Positions 1 to 59,470 of a stretch of DNA of 64,000 bases are shown here, piece after piece. The position numbers and the translations under genes are program-made. Under the pieces are notes generated by a model. It was not told the origin of the DNA and did no database searches. It was given only the letters and a program-made list of their open reading frames with translations. Origin of the DNA: Gammaproteobacteria bacterium. GTDB lineage: Bacteria; Pseudomonadota; Gammaproteobacteria; Ga0077536. Within the stretch, counting starts at the first letter, position 1. Each line of letters opens with the position of its first letter. The stretch is from assembly GCA_016191285.1 (NCBI GenBank), contig JACPPA010000021.1, positions 14,473-78,472 of the forward strand, read 5' to 3'.

Positions 1-12
1 GGCTCCGGCGGC

Positions 13-1071
13 ATGTTCGTCAGCAGCGAGAAATTCATCGAGGCCCACAGCGGCAAGATCGGCGACATCTCCATCTACGGCCAGGAGTCCAACTACACCA
101 CCTGGCGCCTGGCCAAAATGAACCTCGCGATTCGCGGCATCGACGCCCAAATTGCCCACGGCGACACCTTCTACAACCACGGCCACCCGGATCTCAAGGC
201 CGACTACGTACTCGCCAACCCGCCCTTCAACGACAGCGATTGGCGCGACGAACTGTTGAAGGACGACAAACGCTGGGTCTACGGCGTGCCGCCCGCGGGC
301 AACGCCAACTACGCATGGGTGCAGCATTTCATTTGTCACCTCGCGCCCACCGGACTCGCCGGCTTCGTGCTCGCCAATGGATCGATGTCGTCAAATCAAT
401 CCGGCGAAGGCGAGATCCGCAAGGCCATCATCGAAGCCGACTTGGTGGATTGCATGGTCGCGCTGCCCGGTCAGCTCTTTTACTCAACGCAAATCCCGGT
501 CTGTCTGTGGTTTCTCACACGCAATAAAGCGGCTCGACATTTCACCGCTCCCTCCCGTCATTCCGGCGCGCTTTCCGATCTTTCCACCGCCCTTTCTCAT
601 CATTCCGGCGCCCCTTCTCGTCATTCCGGCGAAAGCCGGAATCCATCTTTCCGCGACCGTCGCGGCGAAACGCTTTTCATCGACGCCCGCAAAATGGGCT
701 CACTGGTGGACCGCACCCATCGCGAACTGACCGACGACGATCTCGCCAAAATCGCCGGCACCTCTCACCGATGGCGCGGTGACCCGATTACCCCCTCTCC
801 CCTCGCGGGAGAGGGCCGGGGTGAGGGGGAGACGCGTTATCAAGACATCCCCGGCTTCTCCAAATCCGCAACCCTCGAAGATATCCGCAAGCATGGCCAC
901 GTACTCACACCGGGCCGTTACGTCGGAGCAGCGGATGTCGAAGACGACGGCGAGCCGTTCGAGGAGAAGATGAAGCGGCTTGCCAAGACGCTGCGTGAGC
1001 AGCAGGTTGAAGCGGCGAAGCTCGACGCCGCCATTGCCGCCAACCTGACGGGGCTTGGGTATGGCGGGTGA
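13..1071 (+). CDS. hsdM: Type I restriction-modification DNA methyltransferase subunit HsdM (5' end cut by window edge)
   Basis: N6-adenine MTase motif IV LANPPFN; HsdM C-terminal blocks (LFIDARKMG ... [16 protein letters not shown] ... LTPGRYVG); stop overlaps the hsdS start. Confidence 0.9.
535..660. repeat. About 120 nt in-frame insertion of a VIPAKAGI-type palindromic repeat (three degenerate units of cgtcattccggcg...gccggaatcc) inside hsdM
   Basis: Same core as the intergenic repeats at 45100-45250 and 56280-56310. It adds about 40 aa ([33 protein letters not shown]) between the conserved HsdM blocks LWFLTRNK and [11 protein letters not shown], with no stop codon. Confidence 0.7.
789..832. 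repeat. Short GC-rich palindromic element (ccctctcccctcgcgggagagggccggggtgaggggg) inserted in-frame in the hsdM 3' region
   Basis: Encodes [13 protein letters not shown] between the conserved RWRGD and YQDIPGF blocks. A near-identical element type occurs in hsdR at 6104-6152. Confidence 0.6.
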
Positions 1072-2435
1072 GTGGCGTGTTTGCACCGTCGATCAGATTA
1101 AATCGGAAGACGAACGCGCCATTGCCATTGGTCCTTTTGGCTCGCGCATGAAAGCGGACAAGTTATGTCGCGAACGGTGTACCTGTTATCCGGGGAAACA
1201 ACATTTCGGACACTCGCGCACTCATCGGCGATCTCGTTCACGTTTCTGAAGAGACGGCAGACGAACTGCGTTCCTGTAACGTTTTCCCGCGCGACTTGGT
1301 TTTTCCACACCGAGGCGCCATCGGACAGGTTGGAATCGTTCCTGACGACCATAATGGTCGATACGTTCTGTCGACCAGTCTAATGAAGCTGACCTGCAAT
1401 AAAGCGTTGGTAGACCCGCTCTTCATTTTCTACTTTTTCCGATCTGATCTTGGACGTCACGCGCTGCTTCAGAACGCATCAACCGTCGGTACACCCGGCA
1501 TTGGACAGCCGCTAGCTTCGCTTCGCTCGATTTCTGTGCCCGTCCCACCCCTCCCCGAACAATGCGCCATCGCCCACATCCTCGGCACACTAGACGACAA
1601 GATCGAACTAAACCGACGAATGAACGAGACGCTAGAAGCAATGGCGCGAGCACTGTTCAAATCGTGGTTCGTGGATTTCGACCCCGTCCGCACCAAGGCC
1701 GAAGGCCGCGACCCCGGCCTGCCCAAGCCCCTCGCCGACCTGTTCCCGGATTCCTTCGAGGACTCGGAGCTGGGAGAGATTCCGAAGGGGTGGCACGTAC
1801 GGGCCCTTAATGACGTGCTGTCGGAGCTAGAAACGGGCGGCAGACCCAAGGGCGGCGTAGCCGGCTACGCGACAGGTACTCCGAGTGTCGGAGCGGAGAG
1901 CATCGTCGGTCTAGGTGTTTTCGATTATTCCAAGACTAAGTACATTCCTGACGAATTCTTCAAGAAAATGACCAAGGGCCGGACTAAGAGTCGAGACGTC
2001 TTGCTCTACAAGGACGGCGGCCGCCCCGGCGAATTCGAGCCACATGTAACGCTGTTCGGAGACGGATTCCCATTCGAGACATGTGCGATTAACGAGCACG
2101 TTTACCGCATGCGCTTGAATCCGGAAATCGGACAGAACTATCTATTATTCTGGCTTTCATCCGACGTGGTTATGGAAGAAATGCGAATCAAAGGAACTGG
2201 TGTCGCGATCCCGGGTTTAAACTCTACTCAGGTGAAGTCGCTCACCATGCAAGTGCCGCCGACTCAGGTGGCGAAGGCCTTCGATGCACTAACCGATCCG
2301 AGCATCACGAGAATTCTCAGTGCCTGCAAAGAATCACGCACGCTTTGTATCCTGCGCGACTCACTGTTGCCGAAACTGATTTCGGGCGAGGTGCGGGTGA
2401 AAGATGCGGAGACACAAATCGGGAGGGCAGTTTGA
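1061..2435 (+). pseudogene. hsdS: Type I R-M specificity subunit HsdS, disrupted by a frameshift near nt 1160-1166 (or a sequencing error)
   Basis: The N-terminus MAGEWRV...IAIGPFGSRMKADK reads in frame 2. The continuation YVANGVPVIRGNNISDTRALIGDL...LPEQCAIAHILGTLDDKIELNRRMNETLEAMARALFKSWFVDFDP... reads in frame 0, and that frame has a TGA at 1149-1151. Combined length of about 457 aa is typical for HsdS. Confidence 0.75.
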
Positions 2436-2884
2436 TGGCAGACCTAAATCTTACCCAAGCTGAAGCGGACGTCCTTATCGCAATGGTTAAGCATCGGCTG
2501 GACACAACCGAGTGGGACTATCCCGACTTTGGTGGTGTGATCTCAGTTCCGCTGGTATCCATTGATCGACGAGAGCAGTTTCTACTCGACGTTCGCCGAG
2601 GACGAATCGACCTGGCAAAGGGCACATATCAGAATCGCGGTCGCCAGGTCGTAGTACTTGTGCGACTCGACTTCGGTGGGGCGCCGCAACGGAACCCTGA
2701 CGGCGAGGAGATCGGCTCGCCTCATCTTCACGTTTATCGCGAAGGATTCGGCGACAAGTGGGCTCTGACCGTACCTCGCAACCGGTTTACTAATCTGGGG
2801 AACCTTTGGCAAACGCTCGAAGAATTCATGCGGTTTTGCAACATCGTTGACACACAGATCATTAGGAGAGGGCTGTTCACATGA
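2435..2884 (+). CDS. Hypothetical protein (149 aa) embedded in the Type I R-M operon
   Basis: ATG at 2435 overlaps the hsdS stop (TGATG) and is preceded by a GGGAGG RBS. Its stop overlaps the next gene's start (ATGA). No family recognised with confidence. Notable motif [25 protein letters not shown]. Confidence 0.6.
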
Positions 2885-3645
2885 TTGGCGAGATACAGGC
2901 TCTCCTTGATCAATATTGGGCATGGCTTCGTGACAAAACGACCCTCCGTCAGATCGACGACTGGATCGAGATTACGACGCCATACCTTGACCGCCACAAT
3001 GATCAACTCCAGATTTACGCAAGACGCCGTGATAGCGGATTTGTGCTGACTGATGACGGTTATATCCTCCAGGACCTGGCGCAGTCAGGTTGTGGCCTTG
3101 ATAGCGCAAAGCGACAGGCATTGCTCAAGATGACGCTCAACGGATTTGGAGTGCGGGTCAATAACCAGAACCTCGAAGTCCACGCTTCGCCCGATAATTT
3201 TGCGCTCCGTAAGCACAACCTTGTGCAGGCCATGCTGGCCGTAAACGATCTCTTTTATCTAGCGTCGCCCATGGTCGCGAGTTTGTTCTACGAAGACGTC
3301 GTTTCCTGGCTTGACCTGTCCGACATTCGGTATACGCCCAAGGTCAGTTTCCGCGGCAAGAGCGGATACGACCATCTCTTCGATTTCGTGATCCCAAAGT
3401 CCAAGGCCCAGCCCGAACGCATCCTACGGGCGATCAGTCGGCCTAACCGCGACACTGCTCAGTCGGTAGCGTTCTCATGGATCGACACGAAGGAGGTACG
3501 TGCACCGCAGTCTCGCGCCTACGCGATCCTAAACGACGATGGGCATCCTATCGCAGAGACCGTTTTGGATGCTATGCGGAATTACGACGTGCGGCCGGTG
3601 CTCTGGTCTGGGCGAGACGCAGTCAGACAGGAACTCGCGGCCTGA
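2881..3645 (+). CDS. Hypothetical protein (254 aa), translationally coupled to the upstream 149-aa ORF
   Basis: 4-nt ATGA overlap with the upstream ORF. Sits between hsdS and hsdR. No family recognised with confidence. Confidence 0.6.
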
Positions 3646-3675
3646 CCGTGCGCAGATAAAGAAACGTCGCGCAGA

Positions 3676-3850
3676 AACAAGGGACACCCATGTATTCGAT
3701 ACCGATAAGTTTTGATGGGGCCTCACCGCGCCTGAGCGCATTGTCGGATGTCCGCCGAAATACGGGACACCCGTGAATTCGATACCGATAATTATTGATC
3801 GGGCATTGCTCGGTCCGAGCACTATGCTGGGTGTCCCGGAATTCGTCGTC
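3676..3850. promoter_or_regulatory. Three copies of a GGGACACCC / GGGTGTCCC palindromic motif, two inside about 33-nt direct repeats (gggacaccc[a/g]tg[t/a]attcgataccgataa), upstream of rhuM-hsdR
   Basis: Direct repeats at 3676-3711 and 3758-3795, plus an inverted partial copy at 3826-3848. All lie in the 230-nt gap immediately upstream of the RhuM start. Confidence 0.45.
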
Positions 3851-3876
3851 ATGGCAACTATCGAGGATTTGTCGGC

Positions 3877-4875
3877 GTGATCAATCCGATCGATGCGCGC
3901 GGTGGCGAGATCCTGCTCTATGAAGCCCCTGACGGAGAAGTCCGTGTAGACGTACGACTCAATCACGAGACTGTCTGGTTGACGCAGGACCAAATGAGTC
4001 GGCTGTTTGGGCGGGAGCGATCGGTTATTACCAAGCACATCCGCAACCTTTTTCGGGAGGGAGAGCTTGAGCCAGAGGCAACCTGTTCAAAATTTGCACT
4101 GGTTCAAACCGAGGGCGAAAGAACCGTTACACGCGAAACCGATCACTACAACCTCGACGTGATCATCTCCGTCGGCTACCGAGTCAAATCCAGCCAGGGC
4201 ACGCGCTTTCGTCAATGGGCCACCCGTGTATTGCGCGAACATCTGGTGCAGGGCTACACGTTTAACCAGACCCGGCTGGCGGAGCGCAGTCTGCTGGAGG
4301 CGCGACAGACGCTAGACCTTCTTGCGCGCACGCTGCAAAACCAGGCATTAGTGGACGACACCGGTCGCGCGGTCTTGGACCTCATCGTCGGCTACGCCGA
4401 GACTTGGCGCCTACTGCTGGAGTACGACGAAGATCGACTGGCATTACCGTCCGGTGCCAAGCCCTCCTCTGGTGTGCTGGATATTGCGCGAGCCAACGCC
4501 GCGATTGGCAACTTCAAGCGCGAATTGATGGCGCGTAACGAGGCCACGCCACTGTTCGGTAATCCGCGCGGCGAGGCGTTGGAAGGCATTCTCGGCAGCA
4601 TCGAACAGACCATGTTCGGCGAAAGTTTGTACCGATCGCGCGAAGAGAAAGCCGCCAACTTGCTCTATCTGGTCATCAAGGATCACCCCTTCTCGGATGG
4701 CAACAAGCGCATCGGCTCCTTCCTCTTCATGCTCTACTTGCAACAGGAAAGCATGGCGCATCAACTCAATCCACAGGCACTGACAGCCCTTGCGTTGCTC
4801 ATCGCCGAAAGCGCCGCCGCCAACAAGGACTTGATGGTCCGGCTGATCATCAATCTGTTGACGGAACGCCGATGA
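3877..4875 (+). CDS. rhuM: RhuM-family virulence protein with a C-terminal Fic/DOC motif
   Basis: N-terminal RhuM blocks ([33 protein letters not shown] ... [26 protein letters not shown]). C-terminal Fic/Doc motif [11 protein letters not shown]. Typical occupant of the hsdS-hsdR gap. Its stop overlaps the hsdR start. Confidence 0.85.
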
Positions 4876-7800
4876 CGGCCTTCACCGAAACCATCGTCGA
4901 AGACGCCGCCCTCGCCTGGCTCGAAGCGCTCGGCTACTCCGTGCTGCACGGTCCGGACATCGCGCTCGGCGAGCCCGGCGCAGAACGCGTCGATCCGAAC
5001 TATCGCGACGTGCTGCTGGACGATCGCCTGGGTCAAGCGCTCATCCGGCTGAATCCAGACTTGCCACGTGAAGCGCTCGAAGACGCCCACCGCAAACTGT
5101 TGCGCAACGAGGCGCCGTCGCTGCTGGAGCGTAATCGAACCTTGCGCCGGCTGTTGGTGGATGGGATCACCGTCGAATACCGTCGCCCGGATGGCTCAAT
5201 TGCCGGCGGTCAGGCGTGGGTCATCGACTTCGATACCCCGGACAACAATGACTGGTTGGCGGTCAATCAATTCACAGTCGCTGAAGGCCAGCACACGCGC
5301 CGGCCGGATGTGGTGGTGTTCGTCAACGGCTTGCCGTTGGCGGTTATCGAATTGAAAAATCCCGCCGATGAGAACGCGACCGTTTGGAGTGCCCATCGCC
5401 AGTTGGAGACTTATCAGGCGCAGATCCCCGCGCTCTTCATCACTAACGCCGTGCTCGTGGCATCGGATGGCGTGCAGGCGCGTATCGGTGCGCTTGGCGC
5501 GGGCAAGGAATGGTTCAAGCCCTGGCGCACGATCAGCGGACGTGAGATCGCGCCGGCCAAGTTGACCGAATTACAGGTGGTGCTGGAGGGCGTGTTCGAT
5601 AAAAAACGCTTCCTCGATCTGCTGCGCTACTTCATGGTGTTTGAAGACGCCGCTATTTCTGGGGGCGGCGGCAAGCTTACGAAGAAGATGGCGGGCTACC
5701 ACCAGTTTCACGCGGTGAATGTGGCGGTTGAGGAAACGCTCCGCTCGGCGCGATTTGATCAAAGCGAATCACAAGGTCGCTATTCGGCGGGATTACACGC
5801 CGGGGGCGATCCCGGCGATCGGCGCGTCGGCGTGGTCTGGCACACGCAAGGCTCGGGCAAGAGTCTGACGATGGCCTTCTACGTCGGGCGGGTGATCTTG
5901 CATCCGGAAATGCAAAATCCAACCGTGGTCGTGATCACCGACCGCAACGATCTGGACGAGCAACTCTTTAGCACCTTCGCCCTGTGTCGAGATTTACTGC
6001 GACAGCCACCGGTGCAAGCGGCCGATCGCGCCGATCTGCGCGCGAAACTCACGGTCGCTGCGGGTGGCGCGGTGTTCTCCACCATTCAGAAGTTCTTCCC
6101 TGAAACCCCCTCACCCCAACCCTCTCCCGCTGAGGGGCGAGGGGGAAGAATGGAGATGCTCTCGGGTCGACGCAACATTGTGGTGATCGCGGACGAAGCG
6201 CACCGCAGCCAGTACGATTTTATCGACGGTTTTGCGCGCCACCTGCGCGATGCGCTGCCGAATGCGTCGTTCGTCGGTTTCACTGGCACGCCAATCGAAA
6301 CGACGGACGCAAACACGCGCGCCGTCTTCGGCGATTACATCAGTATTTATGACATCCAGCGCGCCGTTGTCGATGGCGCCACGGTGCCCATCTACTACGA
6401 GAGCCGCTTGGCTAAGCTTAATCTCAAAGATTCCGAGCGCCCGAAGATCGATCCCGAGTTCGACGAGGTGACGGAAGGCGAGGAAGTCGAGCGCAAGGAG
6501 AAACTCAAGAGCAAATGGGCGCAGCTCGAAGCGGTGGTCGGCGCCGAGAGTCGACTCAAACTCATTGCGCGTGATCTAGTGGAACATTTTGAGAATCGAC
6601 TGACGACGATGGACGGCAAGGCGATGGTGGTGGTGATGAGTCGCCGCATCGCGGTGGAACTCTACCGCGAGCTGGTGGCGCTCTGCCCGATCTGGCATGG
6701 CGAAGACGATGAACATGGCGCGCTCAAAGTCATCATGACGGGCTCCGCTTCGGATCCGCTCGATTGGCAGCCGCATATCCGCAACAAGCCGCGTCGCGAA
6801 ACATTGGCCGCGCGCTACCGGAACCCGAAGGATCCGTTTCGCATCGTCATCGTGCGCGATATGTGGCTCACCGGTTTCGACGCGCCGAGCATGCACACGA
6901 TGTATGTGGATAAGCCCATGCGTGGGCACGGGCTGATGCAGGCCATCGCGCGCGTGAACCGCGTATTCAAGGACAAACCCGGTGGCTTGGTCGTCGATTA
7001 TTTGGGGTTGGCCGACGAACTGAAACAGGCGATGGCCACATACACCGAAGCCGGTGGCACCGGCAAGACGGCCATCGATCAAGCCGAGGCTGCGGCGTTG
7101 ATGTTGGAAAAGCATGAGATCTGCTGCGCGCTGTTTCACGGCCTCGATTGGTCGCCGTGGACCTCGGGTACGGCGCAAGCTCGGCTCTCGCTGCTGCCGG
7201 CCGCGCAGGAGCACATCCTGGCCCAGGATGACGGTAAGAATCGGCTATTGCGCGCTGTCTCCGAGCTCTCTCAAGCGTTTGCGCTGGCCGTGCCGCACGC
7301 AGAGTCGATGCGGATCCGCGATGACGTGGGTTTCTTCCAGGCGGTGCGCGCCGTGCTCGCCAAGCGCCTAGCCGGCGATCGTAAAGCGGACGACGATCTC
7401 GACCATGCCATTCGGCAGATCATCTCGAAGGCGATGGTCTCGGACGAAGTCGTCGATATCTTCGCCGCCGCAGGCCTGAAGAAGCCCGATATCTCGATCC
7501 TCTCCGACGAGTTTCTCGCCGAGGTGCGCAATTTACCGCAACGTAACCTTGCAGTGGAACTGCTGCAAAAACTGCTGAAGGGCGAAATCAAAACGCGGGC
7601 CAGGCGCAATGTGGTGCAGGCGAAGTCGTTTGCGGAAATGCTGGAACAATCGCTGCGGCGCTACCAGAACCGGGCGATCGAAACGGCCAAGGTCATCGAG
7701 GAATTGATCCAGCTTGCAAAGGACATGCGGGCCGCGAGTCAACGCGGCGAACAACTCGGTCTCAACGATCACGAGGTCGCGTTCTACGACGCATTGGAGA

Positions 7801-8048
7801 CCAACGACAGCGCCGTGAAAGTGTTGGGCGACGAGGCGCTACGCACGATCGCGCGCGAACTGGTCAAGACGGTGCGCGCCAACGTCACCATCGATTGGAC
7901 GATACGCGACAATGTCCGCGCCCAGCTTCGTGTGCTGGTCAAGCGCATCTTGCGCAAATACGGCTATCCCCCGGACAAGCAAGAGAAGGCCACGCAAACG
8001 GTATTGGAGCAGGCCGAGGTGTTATCCGCGGAGTGGGCGGGGGTGTAG
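4872..8048 (+). CDS. hsdR: Type I restriction enzyme R subunit HsdR (1058 aa)
   Basis: Helicase motifs ([10 protein letters not shown] Walker A; [15 protein letters not shown] box), size and operon context. Carries an in-frame palindromic element at 6104-6152 that encodes [15 protein letters not shown]. Confidence 0.9.
6104..6152. repeat. GC-rich palindromic element inserted in-frame in hsdR
   Basis: cccctcaccccaaccctctcccgctgaggggcgaggggg lies between the conserved TIQKFF and [12 protein letters not shown] blocks. Same element type as hsdM 789-832. Confidence 0.55.
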
Positions 8049-8262
8049 AAGATGATGTCGACCCGGACGCCGGCTGAACCACACTGCCGATGAGGCCGGT
8101 CTCGAATTCGGCGATACCGCGGAAAGTTCTCGATACGGGGGTATCGCCAATGATCGTCCAGGCCACATCGGCGTGCAGTAGCTCGCGGACCCTCGGCATA
8201 TTTCCGCTGGACAAGGCGGCAAAGAAATCGCGAATAATTTGTTTGTCGGTATCGTTCGGCAT
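8049..8262 (-). pseudogene. SnoaL/NTF2-like protein, N-terminal fragment. The C-terminus is apparently replaced where the ORF runs antisense into the hsdR 3' end
   Basis: MPNDTDKQIIRDFFAALSSGNMPRVRELLHADVAWTIIGDTPVSRTFRGIAEFETGLIGSV, then low-complexity read-through antisense to hsdR. Confidence 0.4.
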
Positions 8263-8289
8263 AGTTCGATTCCTCTTCAAACGCGAGTG

Positions 8290-8480
8290 AAAGCGCATAA
8301 AGGGATTCTACCGCCGTCGTCCCGGCGCAGGCCGGGACCCAGTCCACGAAGATTCTTTGACTGGATCCCGGAGTTTCGCTGCGCGAATTCCGGGATGACG
8401 GCGTGAGAGTAGCGCCGCGCTCGGTACACCCAACACAACCTCGACAACTCCATCGAGTTTTCACACAGCCTGTTACGCCG
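8290..8480. repeat. MITE-like composite repeat element (family shared with 45290-45440)
   Basis: tcccggcgcaggccgggacc hairpin plus a conserved about 110-nt module (...ccgggatgacggcgtgaga..gcgccgcgctcg...gcctgttacgccggaatgacgat). Near-identical copy at 45300-45435. Confidence 0.7.
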
Positions 8481-8613
8481 GAATGACGATGCTCCAGACC
8501 ACAGCGCCTCGCGAGGTGGTCGATATTTCCGCTTCGCTAATTAGATTCTATAACCTAAGGATCGACGAAAGCGATCCTCGTACGGCAATACCGCTCCCTT
8601 TTGAGACCGTCGA

Positions 8614-9801
8614 CTACCGAACCTTGATCATCACCATGAAGCCATCGGCGAATTTCTGCGCGCCGATATGAAAATCACCATTGATGTCGGAGATCAGCAG
8701 CGAATCGCCGGCGAACGCCACGCCGACGGGGTTCGCCAATCCCGAGGCAACTAGCACGAGCTCGCCCTGTGGCGTCACGCGATAGACGCGGCCATCGCTG
8801 GGAACTCGTTCCGTCGCTTCGACCTCGTTGTTCCAATCGCCGGCATCGCTGATGAAGAGCTCGCCGGCGAACCTGCCGAAGCGCTGGGGTGCAAAGGCCA
8901 TCGCGCCTGGCTCGTGCAGCCCGTTGACGAACGGTTGCGGCGTGATGGTCCCAGCGGCGGATACCCGCAAAATCCTGCCGCCCCCTGGTATCGTCTTGGC
9001 GCGATTGCCCGGTGTCGGCGCGGCACTGCCGAGCAACATCGTTTCCCCATCGGGCGTGAAGCCAATGCCCCGCGGAGAGCCCCACTTGGCCAAATCCACG
9101 GTCAGGAATGGCGTACAAGCGCCGTCGGGTGTGACTTGATAAAGGGTGTGATTGCTCGCCGCCGTGACCCACAGCTTGCCGGCAAACGGGCCGTGTTCGG
9201 GACCGAATCGCGCAAAGAAGCCGCCGGCGCCCGGTTCGTGCGCGTCGTTTTCCGGGAGGAAGCAGACGACGGTGTCACGGCCCGTCGCCGGATCGATACG
9301 CGTAATAGCATCGGGCAATTCCCACCCGCCGGCCTTCTCCGGCTTCGCGAACGCGACGGTATAGATCTGTCCCGCAAACTTGCCGAAGCTCGGCGGCGCC
9401 ACGTCCAGCGAAATCGGCGCGTGCTGCTTGATGTCGGCAAGCACTGCAACGTGGCCGTCCGTCGTGACCTCGAAGATCGCGCCGCTCTTGGCATCGTCCG
9501 CGACCCACACCGTCGTGTCATCGACCACGTGGATATCGAACGGATCGTAAAGTTGCGTTCGCGGCGGGACCAGCACGGTAAACGTGAATTCGTCTGCCGT
9601 CTTGATCGGCGGAACGGCGAACACGCGCGCGAGTGTTGCCTTGGACACACTCAACGGTAGCTGCACCCAATCGGGCGCGTCCTTTTCCATCTCCGTGGGG
9701 GAAGACGCGCGCGCCGACGCTTCCGCTGCGATGGTCATTGGCGCACTCGCCAGACAGGTCCACAGGCAAATGACGGTTAGCAACAGTGGGCTGTGCCGCA
9801 T
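8614..9801 (-). CDS. Secreted beta-propeller protein (SMP-30/gluconolactonase/LRE-like or NHL-like repeats)
   Basis: Internal ATG at 9801 with an AGGAAG RBS. Signal peptide MRHSPLLLTVICLWTCLASAPMTIAAEA. Repeated ...TxDG... blade motifs (VWVADDAKSGAIFEVTTDG, LWVTAASNHTLYQVTPDG, RVYRVTPQGELVLV). Confidence 0.6.
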   Translation of the reverse strand: MRHSPLLLTVICLWTCLASAPMTIAAEASARASSPTEMEKDAPDWVQLPLSVSKATLARVFAVPPIKTADEFTFTVLVPPRTQLYDPFDIHVVDDTTVWVADDAKSGAIFEVTTDGHVAVLADIKQHAPISLDVAPPSFGKFAGQIYTVAFAKPEKAGGWELPDAITRIDPATGRDTVVCFLPENDAHEPGAGGFFARFGPEHGPFAGKLWVTAASNHTLYQVTPDGACTPFLTVDLAKWGSPRGIGFTPDGETMLLGSAAPTPGNRAKTIPGGGRILRVSAAGTITPQPFVNGLHEPGAMAFAPQRFGRFAGELFISDAGDWNNEVEATERVPSDGRVYRVTPQGELVLVASGLANPVGVAFAGDSLLISDINGDFHIGAQKFADGFMVMIKVR

Positions 9802-23975: not shown

Positions 23976-23990
23976 CTGAATTGTATGGCT

Positions 23991-24060
23991 ATTGTGGGAG
24001 CGGCTTTAGCCGCGAATCTTTACTGAGGTCAATTCGCCGCTAAAGCGGCTCCCACAGGTG
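23991..24060. repeat. REP-like hairpin (gtgggagcggctttagccgcgaa ... ttcgccgctaaagcggctcccac) between convergent dctA and the glucan synthase; possible bidirectional terminator
   Basis: Perfect inverted repeat of about 23 nt with a 22-nt loop. Same family at 35500-35625, 37322-37392, 50042-50128 and 59441-59470. Confidence 0.7.
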
Positions 24061-24073
24061 CGGTGATGATCAG

Positions 24074-27000
24074 CTAAATCGCGATTTGCAGATGATGCGT
24101 ACCGCCGTCGAGCTTCACGCGAACGACACCGGTACACTGTATGGGTATTCCATCGAGCACGGCGTCCGATACACCGCGACCGCGCTGCGATGGGTTTGAC
24201 ACGGCGATCTCGTAACGCGTCGCCTTGACATTGACCGTGGCTGAAAATCCCGGCCACGCGGCAGGAAGGCAGGGCTCGACGATGAGCCACGCGCCCTCGC
24301 GGCGAATCCCGAGAATGCCTTCAACACCGGCACGATACATCCATCCCGCCGCGCCCGTGTACCACGTCCAGCCGCCGCGGCCGACATGCGGCGCCACCGA
24401 ATAAACATCCGCCGCGACGACGTAGGGCTCGACCTTGTAGCGCTCAACTTCGTCGAGCGTCCGCGCATGATTGATGGGGTTCAACAGGGCAAAAAGCGCG
24501 GCGGCTCGGTCGCCCGCGCCCAACTTCGTATACGCCAGGATGGCCCACATCGCGGCGTGGCTGTATTGTCCCCCATTTTCGCGCAGGCCCGGCGGATAGC
24601 CCTTGATATAGCCGGGATCGCACGCGGTGTTATCGAAGGGCGGCGTGAACAACAGCGCCAGACCGTCGTTGCGGCGGATCAAATGCTTGTCCACCGACGC
24701 CATCGCGGTCACGGCGCGTGCGGGATCGGCGGCGCCGGACAACACGGCCCACGACTGCGCAATGGAATCGATCTGGCATTCCTCGCTGTCTTTCGATCCC
24801 AGCCAACTGCCGTCATCGAAGGTCGCGCGGCGATACCATTCCCCGTCCCATGCCTCGTGCTCGAGCGCAGCGCAGACGGCAACCGCATGGGCGCGCCAGC
24901 GTTGGGCGCGCGTCGGGTCGCGATCGGCCGCGAGCGGTACAAACAGCCGCAGCGTTCGCACGAGTAACCACGCGAGCCACACGGACTCGCCGTGTCCGCC
25001 GGCGCCGACGCGGTTCATCCCATCGTTCCAGTCACCAGTCCCGATGAGCGGCAAACCATGTTCGCCGGTGAGCGCCAGGCATTGATCTAAGGCGCGGGCG
25101 CAGTGTTCAAAGAGCGTGGCCGACTGATCCGCGACCAGCGGTTGAAAGAACGCGTCGGGTTCGCCCGGACGCAGTAGAGGACCGTCGAGAAACGGAATTA
25201 TCTCGTCGAGAATCGCCACGTCATCCGCCGCCGCGATGTAGGTCGCGGTCGCGAAGGCGAGCCACACCCGATCGTCCGCGATGCGCGTGCGTACACCCTG
25301 CCCGGAATGCGCCAGCCACCAATGCTGCACATCGCCTTCAACGAATTGCCGGGCGGCGGCCCGCAGCAGGTGATCGCGCGTGGCTTCCGGTTGTGAAAAA
25401 GTTAACGCCATGCCGTCTTGCAACTGATCGCGAAAGCCGTAGGCGCCGCTCGCCTGATAAAAAGCCGCGCGCGCCCACAGCCGGCAGGCGAGGGTTTGAT
25501 ACAGCAGCCACCCGTTCAACAGAATGTCCAGCGCACGATCGGGCGTTTTGACTTGAACCGTGCCTAGCACAGCGGCCCAATGATCAGTCACGCCCTTCAG
25601 CACGGCATCGAGATCGAATTCGCGATAACGCCCGACGAGCGCTGCCACATCGGCCGCAGAGCCGCATTGCCCGAGAAAGAACACCACCTCGACGGATTCG
25701 CCGGCGTCGAGTTCGATCACGCGGGTTAAAGCAGCGCACGGATCAAGCCCGGCGCCAGTAGTCTTGGACAGTAACGCCTTACTGGCGAGCGCCGCAGGGC
25801 TTGCCGGTCCACCATGGCGGCCCAGAAATTCGGTGCGGTCCGCTGTCCACGCAGTATGCCGCCCGGCGAGATCGGCAAAGGCAACCCGGCCGGCGAACGC
25901 CGGATTCCAGGGGTTACGCGCGATCAGCGCACCGCAGGCATCGACCTCGGTAATAATGAACGGGCCGGTCGCGCCGTGCGCGGTGCCGAGCACCCATTCC
26001 ACATACGCCGTGACGGAGAGCCGCCGCGGCACTCCCGACAAATTGCTGAGGGTCAGGCGTGAGATCTTGATGGGATCCGCAAGCGGTACGTATTGCAACA
26101 GGTCGAGCGCGATGCCGTGCGCCCGATGTTCGAAGCGACAATAGCCGTGACCGTGGCGTGCGATGTACCTTCCACCGTCGCGGATCGGTTGCGCCGTTGC
26201 GCTCCATAAATCCAAAGTGTCTTCGTCGCGAACGTAAATCGCCTCCCCTGCCGGATCGCCAATCGGATCGTTCGACCACGGCGTCAGCTGGTTCTCGCGA
26301 CTGCTCTCCGCCCACGTATACCCACTGCCGTCGGCCGAGGCTTGAAATCCGAAATGCGGATTGGCCACCACATTGATCCAGGGCGCTGGCGTCGTCTGCG
26401 CGCCGTCGAGGACGGTGACATATTCGCGGCCGTCGCGGTCGAAGCCCCCCAGGCCGTTAAAGAATTCGAGATCCGGTGGCGTCGGCAGGGATTGCGGCGC
26501 CGGCTTTGGGCGACGCACGCTCGCCGGCCGGATCGCCGGCGGCCGCCGCGCGAGTTCGTCGGCTAACTGCTCGGCAAGTGACCCACGGCGCGCGACCAGC
26601 GCGACGCGGGCAACCGCTTGCAGCAGCGCCCGGGTGTCGAGATGCATCAAGTCGGCGCGCAACGTAAAGACCGCGCCGTGCGCGAGCTCGGCGCCGAAGC
26701 GGGGTCGCGCCTGGCTGCTGCGCACGGCGGTATCGATGGCGTTCTGTAAATCCTGCAAGTACGACGACGCGTGTTCGTTGACGATCACGAGATCCACGCT
26801 CAGGCGTTTCATGCGCCAGTATTCGTGCGCGCGCAGGAGTTGGCGCACTTGGTCGATGTCTTCGCTATCGTCGATGCGCAACAGTACGATCGGAAGATCG
26901 CCGGAAATCGCGTGCGGCCACAGCCCGGACTGCGGCCCAGCACCGCGCATGATCGTCGCCGACGGCGCCCTGAAACGAGGGTCGGCGTAGACGATCGGGG

Positions 27001-35440: not shown

Positions 35441-35499
35441 GTTATGAGTGCTGTCCCCGTTGAACTTGCACAGGACACGCGCTGCTGGCGGCGCTTGGT

Positions 35500-35625
35500 G
35501 GAAGCCGCCTTGTGGGAGCTGCCTTGTGGGAGCTGCCTTGTGGGAGCCGCTTTAGCGGCGAATCTTTTTTGACGACTGATGTGATCCGCCATTTCGCCGC
35601 TAAAGCGGCTCCCACCATAGCAATG
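35500..35625. repeat. REP-like cluster: three tandem half-sites (gtgggagctgccttgtgggagctgccttgtgggagccgctttagcggcgaa) plus the inverted partner
   Basis: Direct reading of the sequence. Same family as 23991-24060. Confidence 0.7.
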
Positions 35626-37321: not shown

Positions 37322-37392
37322 GCATTTTGTGGGAGCCGCTTTAGCGGCGAATGGGGCATTTCCAGAGAATTCGCCGCTAAAGCGGCTCCCAC
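37322..37392. repeat. REP-like hairpin
   Basis: gtgggagccgctttagcggcgaa ... ttcgccgctaaagcggctcccac. Confidence 0.7.
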
Positions 37393-37404
37393 ACCAAGCG
37401 ATCC

Positions 37405-45089: not shown

Positions 45090-45450
45090 CTCGATAGGCG
45101 TTGTCGTCGTGGCGTCCGACCCTGCACCCGTCATGCCGGCGCACGCCGGAATCCAAAGAGCCTCAGAGCACCTACCACCGTCATGCCGGCGAACGCCGGA
45201 ATCCAAAGGGCCTCAGAGCACTCCCACCGTCATTCCGGCGAATGCCGGAATCCAGTGAAGAAATACTGTCCGCGCAATGCGCGGACACCTAATCCGACTG
45301 GATCCCGGATAACCGCTCCGCGAATGCCGGGATGACGGCGTGAGAACCGCGCCGCGCTCGCTACCCCCAACACCAGCGCGACAACGCCATCGAGTGTTTA
45401 CCCGGCCTGTTACGCCGGAATGACGATAAGTAAACTCTGGCGCACTTCGG
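45090..45450. repeat. MITE-like composite repeat cluster: three tandem 48-nt VIPAKAGI-type units plus a 110-nt module shared with 8290-8480
   Basis: ccaccgtcat[g/t]ccggcgaa[c/t]gccggaatccaaag.gcctcagagcac repeated three times (45117-45250), then an about 140-nt segment near-identical to 8340-8470. Confidence 0.75.
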
Positions 45451-47799: not shown

Positions 47800-47960
47800 C
47801 GGTTCAACTAAATAACGGAGCGTAAATACCGTCCACCCTACGCAGGTTGGGCTTTAACCGCGTCATGCCGGCGTGATCCCGGCTTTCGCCGGAAGGAATC
47901 CAGGACAATTAGCTATTCGACTGGGTCCCGGCATTCGCCGGGACGACAGTAGTGCATTCC
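47800..47960. repeat. MITE-like repeat element (family shared with 56100-56230)
   Basis: ataccgtccaccctacgcaggttgggctttaaccgcgtcatgccggcgtgatcccggc...aggaatccaggaca...ttcgactgggtcccggc. Near-identical to 56105-56225. Confidence 0.7.
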
Positions 47961-50041: not shown

Positions 50042-50128
50042 TGATGCGTTGTTATTGTGGGAGCGGCTTTAGCCGCGAATTTGTCTCGATAAAGATTGGC
50101 CGCTGAGGCGGCTCCCGCAAGACCGCCC
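50042..50128. repeat. REP-like hairpin
   Basis: tgtgggagcggctttagccgcgaa ... cgctgaggcggctcccgca. Confidence 0.65.
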
Positions 50129-56094: not shown

Positions 56095-56470
56095 CGTGCG
56101 AACTAAATAGCGAAGCGGAAATACCGTCCACCCTGCGGAGGTTGGGCTTTAACTGCGTCATTCCGGCGTGGTCCCGGCCTGCGCCGGGAGGAATCCAGGA
56201 CATTGAGTTATTCGACTGGGTCCCGGCGTTCCAGGCCGTGTAAAAACTCCAAGTGAATTGGAGCAGCAGGGAACAAGAACCCAGTACACGTCATTCCGGC
56301 GAACGCCGGAATCCAGAAAAAAAGCAGATCCGCGCGCTGCGCAGAGGCCTACTCTGACTGGAAAGCCGGAGTTTCGCTTTGCGAATTCCGGGGTGACGGA
56401 CGGCGGTTCGAGTTTTTACACGCCCTCGTTCGCCGGCACGGACACCGCGCGTAAACCACGACGAAGGTCT
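56095..56470. repeat. MITE-like composite repeat cluster
   Basis: Copy of the 47800-47960 module (56105-56225), plus a VIPAKAGI-type unit (cgtcattccggcgaacgccggaatccag, 56290-56318) and a degenerate third module. Confidence 0.7.
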
Positions 56471-59440: not shown

Positions 59441-59470
59441 TGCTGGTGTGGGAGCGGCTTTAGCCGCGAA
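59441..59470. repeat. REP-like half-site
   Basis: gtgtgggagcggctttagccgcgaa. Confidence 0.5.

Follow-up and report, generated by a model that had tools for sequence, protein, structure and literature searches.

In-frame palindromic repeats in a type I restriction–modification operon and their relation to BoxC/TM modules and DUF559 genes

The window analysed here is a 64,000-nt stretch of contig JACPPA010000021.1, from an uncultured gammaproteobacterium, which opens with the genes of a type I restriction–modification (R-M) system, hsdM, hsdS and hsdR. A sequence-only reading of this DNA had placed palindromic repeat elements inside hsdM (twice) and hsdR, each keeping the reading frame. All three inserts were found at these places and in frame, and the open reading frames (ORFs), the gap against a solved HsdM structure and the insert-free orthologues agree on this point. 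We describe below the inserts, the two kinds of repeat to which they belong, and a putative endonuclease gene, DUF559, that in other genomes is bracketed by one of these kinds.

The operon and its three inserts

1..1071, + strand: hsdM, the methylase subunit of the type I R-M system, truncated on its N-terminal side by the window edge (frame 1; PF02384 N6_Mtase, E = 1e-75)
529..648, + strand: hsdM site-1 insert, 40 aa in place of the baseline KNGR, net +36 aa
784..837, + strand: hsdM site-2 insert, 18 aa in place of a baseline of approximately KDAGD (5 aa), net +13 aa
1068..2435, + strand: hsdS, interrupted by a +1 frameshift near 1156-1160 (GACAAGTTATGTC)
4872..8048, + strand: hsdR, the restriction subunit; its ORF is intact (1058 aa) and encodes a product identical to protein P0121 from a gammaproteobacterial metagenome-assembled genome (MAG)
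6105..6155, + strand: hsdR insert, 17 aa in place of the baseline E(K/R)GDRHP (7 aa), net +10 aa

The additional residues are insertions. When window HsdM is compared with its solved match, PDB 3khk (E = 4e-82), residues 181–216 remain unmatched and the residues flanking them correspond to 3khk residues 451 and 453; approximately 13–15 aa near residues 264–278 are also extra. The hsdM baseline was taken from insert-free orthologues (NKKNGRFRDRR; WRGDKDAGDYEDIPGF), and window HsdM is 72–82% identical to the 120 homologues compared. The hsdR insert lies between TIQKF and the DEAH box.

The inserted DNA is markedly repetitive by comparison with shuffled expectation over the 64-kb window. The pattern CCCTCTCCCN5GGGAGAGGG occurs once (0.03 expected), and GGGGTGAGGGGG with at most one mismatch occurs four times (0.19 expected), all four within the two GC palindromes at hsdM site 2 and in hsdR. 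These two palindromes are mutual reverse complements (42 nt, 76%). The site-1 motif, ATTCCGGCGNNNGCCGGAAT, has 12 strand matches with up to three mismatches (0.47 expected). Only the CGTC hairpin of site 1 folds better than its shuffles (−9 kcal/mol as DNA, z = −3.0), the minimum free energy of the G/C-block palindromes being no better than that of shuffles of their own composition (z = −0.6 and −0.8; duplex folding only). An Rfam search of nt 1–9000, with E values up to 1, gave no match.

Insertion without inactivation, as the sequence-only reading had it, cannot be claimed for this locus. Near window nt 1156-1160, in hsdS, GAC AAG TAT GTC is expected and GACAAGTTATGTC is present; GPFGSRMKADK is read in frame 3, after which frame 1 goes on as SYVANGVPVIRG. 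The Logan contig L081, an independent assembly of 7.4 kb that starts at window nt 948, carries the same frameshift and matches the window with 0 mismatches over 7396 nt, hsdR insert included. The activity of the window R-M system is therefore doubtful: the system may be a decaying pseudogene set, or the two assemblies may have an error in common.

A host REP at site 1 and triplex-motif modules in hsdM and hsdR

The insert at site 1 is the host genome's own CGTC-1 repetitive extragenic palindromic (REP) sequence, gained in this lineage, and is of a known kind. CGTC-1 REPs are defined by a CGTC (or TGTC/CCTC) tag, an 8-bp stem that starts with AT, a 4-nt loop and a CCA tail (Di Nocera et al. 2013, PMC3733652). 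The copies in the window are as follows.

556..610, + strand: two partial left arms of the site-1 REP, lacking the right arm (CGTCATTCCGGCG at 556-568; CATCATTCCGGCG at 598-610)
619..645, + strand: complete CGTC-1 type REP unit (CGTC + ATTCCGGC + GAAA + GCCGGAAT + CCA)
45129..45254, + strand: intergenic array of three host CGTC-1 REP units (45129-45155, 45179-45205 and 45228-45254), period 49-50 nt
56289..56315, + strand: further intergenic host CGTC-1 REP unit (repeat and motif searches)
47872-47899, 25889-25909, 8294-8344 and 8368-8401: CGTC-1 REP variants (repeat and motif searches)

Within hsdM, an unpaired CGTC (619-622) stands directly 5′ of the stem, as it does in the intergenic copies, and 623-645 comprises the 8-bp AT-initiated stem, the 4-nt loop and the CCA tail. 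Within the 64-kb window the family is multi-copy and mainly intergenic: at least six intergenic copies accompany the one in hsdM, and no ORF covers those at 45129-45254, 56289-56315 or 47872-47899. Upstream of the complete unit the insert runs in a tandem register of 21 nt (arms spaced by 21/42 nt; 558-631, 3.5 copies), and the partial arms may be slippage-type 21-nt copies beside one full hairpin unit. The homologue P0113 has the same architecture, with HSREAHx three times and then HSRESGNP; the same composite insert occurs in no orthologue compared. Two details of the sequence-only reading need correction here. The peptide by which it labelled the site-1 repeat comes from another frame than that of hsdM, and the intergenic unit is not 48 nt, the array at 45128-45254 having spacings of 50 and 49 nt, so that the remark on a multiple of three fails as well. 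The class takes in Neisseria dRS3 and Rickettsia RPE-6, and a table in the same survey includes an N-6 DNA methylase of O. terrae in which a REP dimer occupies aa 444-496, as well as the peptide CHSRESGNP; no RAYT is given there for CGTC repeats (PMC3733652). In-frame intragenic REPs are thus documented, there and as Rickettsia palindromic elements (RPEs), and to call such inserts unusual, as the sequence-only reading did, overstates the case.

Other repeats are also present in the window. A second host family, TGTGGGAGCGGCTTTAGCCGCGAAT, occurs at 23990-24056, 35538-35616, 37327-37393, 50053-50119 and 59444-59470, mostly as close inverted pairs (REPIN-like); it resembles the GTAG-type REPs of Pseudomonas but has GTGG. 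A 14-nt tandem repeat (35498-35547) abuts one of its copies. Composite intergenic repeats of approximately 130 nt form two pairs at 86–89% identity (8359-8490 with 45296-45427, and 47806-47936 with 56101-56231) and include variant hairpins of CGTC-like type, GTCGTCCCGGCGCAGGCCGGGACCCAG among them.

The two GC palindromes are, by their block sequence, BoxC/PIT/TM intrastrand triplex-motif (TM) modules.

793..827, − strand: BoxC/TM module in hsdM; its reverse complement reads CCCTCACCCC-GG-CCCTCTCCC-GCGA-GGGGAGAGGG (module regular expression)
6108..6143, + strand: BoxC/TM module in hsdR, 'L' orientation, CCCTCACCCC-AA-CCCTCTCCC-GCTGA-GGGGCGAGGG

Both fit CCCTCACCCC-n2-CCCTCTCCC-loop-GGGAGAGGG, one on each strand; read on the + strand, the hsdM module has the hairpin first and then the G-tail, which is the 'R' orientation. 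The TM motif consists of three 9–10-nt blocks (C, G, G) with a 3–6-nt loop and a 2–3-nt spacer (Holder et al. 2015, PMC4666352). The hsdM copy has this order as CCCTCTCCCC-TCGC-GGGAGAGGG-CC-GGGGTGAGGGGG and is near-identical to type B of the E. coli motif, TM_ECO (Table 1 of PMC4666352), differing essentially only in the loop; the hsdR copy has the three blocks too, with two mismatches in its inner G-block, GGGGCGAGGG. These are the only TM modules in the 64 kb, and both lie inside R-M genes. In this they depart from the intergenic location of TM_ECO, which describes the E. coli copies and is not a sequence criterion. The repeats have been treated by Bachellier in the 1990s, by Hoyne & Maher (2000) and by Holder et al. 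(2015), who found TM_ECO to be always intergenic, found no mobility function and left its spread unexplained (PMC4666352).

Some other assignments of the palindromes were rejected. They are not MITEs (miniature transposable elements with inverted repeats), as there is no direct duplication at the junctions and single modules are themselves hairpins rather than pairs of terminal inverted repeats. Intrinsic terminators are ruled out by the lack of a T-run after the hairpins. An inverted pair 5.3 kb apart that drives inversion of hsdS is ruled out as well, only 42 nt being common at 76%, with both copies present in other genomes and no sign of inversion.

DUF559 genes bracketed by triplex-motif modules

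Insertions in the R-M family fall at few sites. In the 120 HsdM homologues every internal insertion of at least 4 aa lies at positions 153–156, 390–392 or 438–440 of P0116, and the main insertion site in HsdR is at positions 415–416 of P0122, bearing out the suggestion that frame-keeping repeat elements mark loops tolerant of insertion. The HsdM and HsdR homologue lists are biased towards insert-bearing matches, as the queries contained the repeats; in a one-genome-per-species sample with an insert-free alignment, site 2 is occupied in approximately 9 of 55 alleles and site 1 in 6–10 of 55, and locus L048 has a different element at the hsdR site. Loci L029 and L071, candidates for large inserts from their long tblastn extents, have no large hsdM insert. 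HsdS offers a further in-frame landing site for TM modules, in its central conserved region (SWF.DFDPVR...[insert]...LFP..F.DSELG.IPKGW; L050 at approximately 13009 and L063 at approximately 4116); in window HsdS this site is empty.

The two GC palindromes are not confined to this lineage. The site-2 peptide recurs in P0002–P0005, P0016, P0056 and others, and the hsdR peptide (PSPQPSPxxGRGG plus RME) occurs in 27 of 120 homologues from other taxa. The expectation of lineage-specific insertions thus holds for site 1 and fails for the GC palindromes; their recurrence in unrelated orthologues, which the sequence-only reading had named as a sign that the residues are not inserted, marks them as inherited, and they are still insertions against the family baseline. 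The hsdR insert is always linked to a change of RHP to RME and, in three sequenced DNAs, to a synonymous change of GAG to GAA at the DEAH codon. On a neighbour-joining tree computed from alignments in which it was masked, this insert has a patchy distribution (12 Fitch changes), and the R-M family is 85–91% identical across phyla. The sharing by 27 of 120 homologues and the linked flank changes fit one origin plus recombination among alleles. Residue-by-column association of HsdR with the insert gives a weak local peak (positions 458 and 462) over the clade structure, which fits a main clade with recombinants and is not decisive. The TM modules would then have come in with a horizontally mobile R-M module rather than from the repeat pool of this genome.

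The same sites also harbour a larger element. In P0072 and P0075 a whole DUF559 (PF04480) domain is present at hsdM site 2. At the DNA level, an L module lies upstream of the DUF559 domain and its reverse complement (R) downstream, with the tails pointing outward. The ORF, of approximately 118 aa, encodes a putative Vsr-like PD-(D/E)xK endonuclease and is translated by in-frame read-through from the host gene. The closest solved structure to it is the uncharacterized 3hrl from N. gonorrhoeae (E = 2.5e-15). A metagenome scan with the domain gave 21 loci: 12 at hsdM site 2, two at hsdM site 1, five in hsdR (at four sites, one of them the loop that precedes the DEAH box) and two free-standing. 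Of the 21, 18 are in frame within hsdM or hsdR. Embedded copies have no start codon of their own and form continuous ORFs whose stop-to-stop length is 219–1253 aa, whereas an ATG and a GGAGG of its own are present in the free-standing copy of L106. DUF559 is under purifying selection (dN/dS 0.07–0.30), with an invariant KFRRQH..E.DG..D..RD, and clusters by insertion site. In the DUF559–hsdM fusion proteins the only Pfam matches are N6_Mtase, DUF559 and MTES_1575, with no intein family among them. A search for homologues of the DUF559 domain returned only proteins of at most 201 aa, which are gene-call fragments.

Full elements occupy the positions of the window palindromes. In the hsdR genes of L003 (Victivallales) and L050 (Lentisphaerae), which belong to the same family, a full L-DUF559-R element lies at the window hsdR position, with the junctions TIQKFMPxx, then PSPQPSPxGRGS...DUF559...GRGxGGEG, then xALSx. 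The window hsdR reads TIQKFFPET followed by the 13-aa insert segment, and PSPQPSPxGRG after TIQKF(F/M)Pxx is also found in L003 and L050. At hsdM site 2, WRGD directly precedes the full elements and GGTGAGGG closes them ahead of Y.DIPGF; the same holds for the window module. This module is the one that forms the right end of site-2 DUF559 elements, and in the hsdR module the 21-mer CCCTCACCCCAACCCTCTCCC is the same, without a difference, as the left end of the L099 DUF559 element. Each window module therefore has the codon position, orientation and junction peptide of one end of a full element. Intermediate forms, L–R pairs with no ORF between them, occur in P0039, P0044 and P0069, at 8343/8406 of L003, and in L020 and L038. 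The window itself has no DUF559 similarity anywhere (tblastn best E = 0.16) and holds single modules, not the element.

The association is not restricted to the loci from which it was found. Of 89 TM modules in 1.5 Mb of fetched loci, 37 lie in hsdM, 28 in hsdR, nine in DUF559/hsdM fragments and two in hsdS (L050 and L063), with few in intergenic DNA; in a GTDB subset that was not chosen for the repeat, 15 of 20 are inside hsdM, hsdS or hsdR. We also collected 16 distant DUF559 genes (38–52% identity) from E. coli (ycjD), Azospirillum, Sinorhizobium, five Deinococcus plasmids, cyanobacterial plasmids and others. TM-type modules, each a hairpin plus tail, are adjacent to 13 of these 16 genes, and flanking inverted repeats of at least 15 matched nt are present at nine, with none of 96 control placements reaching 18 (Mann–Whitney p = 3e-13). 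A 2023 survey found 'DUF559 domain-containing protein' 14-fold enriched among predicted inversion targets, which fits the flanking inverted repeats.

Taken together, these results lead us to consider it likely that the inserts are selfish repeat DNA kept in permissive surface loops of HsdM and HsdR and of two unrelated kinds, a host CGTC-1 REP at site 1 and, for the two GC palindromes, solo ends of a DUF559 element. The window copies would be its right-end module in hsdM and its left-end module in hsdR, remaining once the ORF and the partner end had been lost, or else non-autonomous derivatives. The direction from full element to solo module is suggested by the series of forms in other genomes, and DUF559 is the candidate mobilizing nuclease. 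Copies out of frame would destroy the gene and be purged, so that the frame is kept; the C-block and G-block sequences also encode stop-poor linkers of Pro, Ser, Gly, Arg and Glu. The loops would be structurally permissive, and the inserts are probably neutral for R-M function.

Several observations weigh against this reading. At least five hairpin families occupy the HsdM hotspots across phyla (GEG/TM, CGTC-1, VRPEHVEGR-type, PPLKKGG-type (PPLKKGGEGG) and PELRQAG-type), and with unrelated families in the same hsdM loops, tolerance of the loop alone can give recurrence at the same site. Neither the three junctions nor the orthologous sites, occupied or empty, show a target-site duplication. 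There is no full element or partner module in the window, and the derivation of the solos draws on forms in other genomes; the nuclease activity of DUF559 is itself a prediction. In-frame placement is not intrinsic to the element: on plasmids of Synechocystis sp. B12 (CP101712 and CP101716; L108 3300-4700 and L109 3100-4750), a DUF559 gene that has TM-type ends interrupts, out of frame, a DUF1156 methylase and pglX of BREX, the pieces being annotated as separate 'hypothetical' coding sequences. Frame preservation is thus a survivorship effect. When DUF559 and the flanking hsdM were compared at synonymous sites, both were saturated (pS 0.5–0.9), with a frame problem upstream in L087, so that the histories of element and host gene are not comparable. 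Finally, AlphaFold2 models of the window HsdM fragment and of full-length P0002 (mean pLDDT, predicted local distance difference test, of 49 and 52.5) are too poor to show exposed loops because the alignments are too shallow at 85–90% identity; the low-confidence secondary structure puts site 1 between two strands and site 2 after a helix.

An alternative is that the solo modules inserted alone, as MITE-like units mobilized in trans by DUF559 or another enzyme, and are not leftovers of full elements. Solos do greatly outnumber full elements, with approximately 40 GEG-type inserts per site against two DUF559 inserts in the 120 HsdM homologues, and E. coli has 23 TM copies against one DUF559 gene; tandem second modules beside the hsdR solo (P0182, P0185, P0186 and L086) suggest continued addition. 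However, the hsdR solos all have one orientation, one junction and the same linked flanks (RME, and GAA at the DEAH codon), which fits a single origin with recombination better, and solos point the same way as the matching end of co-oriented full elements found at their site. We regard independent insertion of solos as unlikely.

Generic colonization, in which abundant host hairpins land at random and survive in frame in tolerant loops, would make DUF559 irrelevant to the window copies. It is what Di Nocera et al. (2013, PMC3733652) concluded for intragenic REPs; site 1 is plainly a host REP, and the presence of at least five unrelated hairpin families in the same HsdM loops of different taxa is in line with it. 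For the GC palindromes, however, it is highly improbable: the remaining ~58 kb of the window, where host REP families are frequent, contain no TM module, TM modules are concentrated in R-M genes rather than intergenic DNA, their inserts are common to orthologues from other phyla, and a full DUF559 element lies at the identical codon position.

An adaptive role, whether as linkers that tune the assembly of HsdM, HsdS and HsdR or as hairpin or triplex DNA that regulates expression, recombination or phase variation, seems to us scarcely credible. TM motifs do form triplexes in vitro and mark variable E. coli loci (Holder et al. 2015, PMC4666352), and the inserts persist across many taxa in host genes under otherwise strong purifying selection. 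Yet their sequence, length and family vary freely at each site, many close alleles have no insert, the hairpins lack the T-run of intrinsic terminators, and hsdS of the locus is frameshifted; promoter or terminator activity was not found in Maher's work, as cited by Holder et al. That the residues are native variable linkers or artefacts of assembly or frameshifting has a negligible probability, since nothing speaks for it beyond the general error rate of MAG assembly, whereas the inserted DNA consists of palindromic repeats of defined families, insert-free baselines and the crystal-structure homologue close the gaps exactly, and the Logan assembly and dozens of other independent assemblies show the same sites.

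Origin by way of DUF559 elements, which we prefer, extends beyond the window, where taken alone the phenomenon is a known one, REP-like repeats tolerated in frame inside genes. The origin and mode of spread of BoxC/PIT/TM repeats have been an open question since the 1990s. We tentatively propose, as a possibility that we rate somewhat below an even chance, that these repeats are the terminal repeats and decay products of widespread, undescribed selfish elements whose autonomous form encodes DUF559, resides in frame in defence genes (hsdM, hsdS, hsdR, pglX and DUF1156 methylase genes) and spreads by nuclease-driven homing, with the window palindromes as fossils of two invasions. The host gene would translate the nuclease, the repeat ends acting as Pro/Gly-rich linkers, and the element would spread between alleles of mobile defence genes by homing to few specific loops. 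A DUF559–BoxC element in frame within defence genes is apparently undescribed in the searchable literature, where no published link of BoxC/TM with DUF559 or ycjD was found either, subscription literature not being covered.

DUF559 is a candidate partner gene for BoxC/TM repeats, which makes the question of their spread testable, for example with E. coli YcjD and TM_ECO. A compact element expressed by staying in frame in host defence genes would represent a strategy between inteins or homing endonuclease genes and REP/RAYT systems. The insertions also provide a natural map of insertion tolerance in a highly conserved, horizontally mobile family of type I R-M systems, with three loops in HsdM, one main loop in HsdR and the central region of HsdS, of use for engineering tags and domain insertions and for annotation, as gene callers now split or misname the chimeric genes.

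Further DUF559 copies were observed in varied settings. Additional in-frame DUF559–TM sites (P0255, P0267, P0292, P0298 and L103–L105) lie in HsdM just after motif I and in HsdR after QNHQ.LGVN, before motif I and in the N-terminal domain. On Deinococcus and Sphingomonas plasmids (L115, L118, L120, L122 and L124), free-standing DUF559 genes with flanking inverted repeats of 23–45 nt lie inside conserved operons for catabolism or energy metabolism (hpaB–hpaE, paaD–paaZ and pntA–pntB); in the hpa operon of three Deinococcus species the gene is at different positions. In E. coli, the DUF559 gene ycjD (L110; K-12 1349800-1352800) is 168 nt from TM_ECO no. 9, and in strain KE47 a TM module starts 13 nt past the ycjD stop codon. 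In the fabI–ycjD–sapF region, the alignment breaks beside the TM in approximately 38% of 5426 complete E. coli genomes; in strain 536 the break is an inserted efflux island, not loss of ycjD.

Operon surroundings and comparison with known systems

Between hsdS and hsdR the window carries cargo genes, which were also called on L081.

2435..4875, + strand: cargo genes between hsdS and hsdR (Pfam)
2435-2884, + strand: DUF6978 gene (Pfam)
2881-3645, + strand: DUF1828/DUF1829 gene (Pfam)
3877-4875, + strand: RhuM-Fic gene (Pfam)

An intergenic 83-nt tandem repeat (3670-3836; 2.0 copies, 75% identity) lies upstream of RhuM-Fic. In related loci (L082, L084 and L085) the same slot holds KwaA/KwaB (Kiwa), a reverse transcriptase (RVT_1), YaaC, DUF1016/YhcG, NTase_sub_bind/Polbeta or DUF3644; a type I operon with such variable cargo constitutes a small defence island.

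The repeats and the proposed element can be compared with several known systems. The site-1 unit has the tag, stem, loop and tail of CGTC-1 REPs, which are likewise mostly intergenic with some in-frame intragenic copies, and the HS(R/G)ES(G/R)NP type of peptide. It differs in its stem (CCGGCG, not CCCGCG), in the 21-nt tandem partial left arms of the intragenic copy and in its host, an uncultured gammaproteobacterium, whereas most reports of CGTC repeats concern Alphaproteobacteria. The palindromic elements of Rickettsia (Ogata et al. 2000, 2002; reviewed in PMC10969869) are also in-frame palindromes in conserved protein genes, where the added peptide fits the fold. However, RPE-1 is approximately 100–150 bp long and restricted to one genus, whereas here modules of 27–36 bp recur in many phyla at identical loops of a single gene family, and for one of the two kinds there is an ORF-bearing form.

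The GC palindromes share with TM_ECO the block order CCCTCTCCC, loop, GGGAGAGGG, 2–3 nt and GGGGTGAGGG, and inverted pairs are found in E. coli too. The E. coli copies are reported to be always intergenic and to lack a mobility gene, whereas those of the window are translated in frame inside hsdM and hsdR, modules in related loci bracket a DUF559 ORF, and the hsdR copy has a degenerate inner G-block (GGGGCGAGGG).

In its architecture, a small enzyme gene between two inverted hairpin repeats that are also found as many solos and pairs, the proposed element resembles REPtrons (REP/REPIN plus RAYT). Its enzyme, however, is a predicted Vsr-like PD-(D/E)xK nuclease and not a Y1 (IS200/IS605-like) transposase, there is no GTAG tag, many DUF559 copies are expressed via in-frame read-through of the host gene, and its mobility is putative. 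With homing endonuclease genes and inteins it has in common a small nuclease ORF at fixed positions in conserved mobile genes, a patchy distribution on the host-gene tree, linked flank changes as in co-conversion, site-specific lineages and a preserved host frame; the Vsr-fold EDxHD homing endonuclease I-Bth0305I has been grouped with VSR/DUF559 (PMC3424549). Unlike these, it has palindromic ends and apparently no intron or intein splicing motifs, so that the insert would stay in the protein, and its homing is hypothetical.

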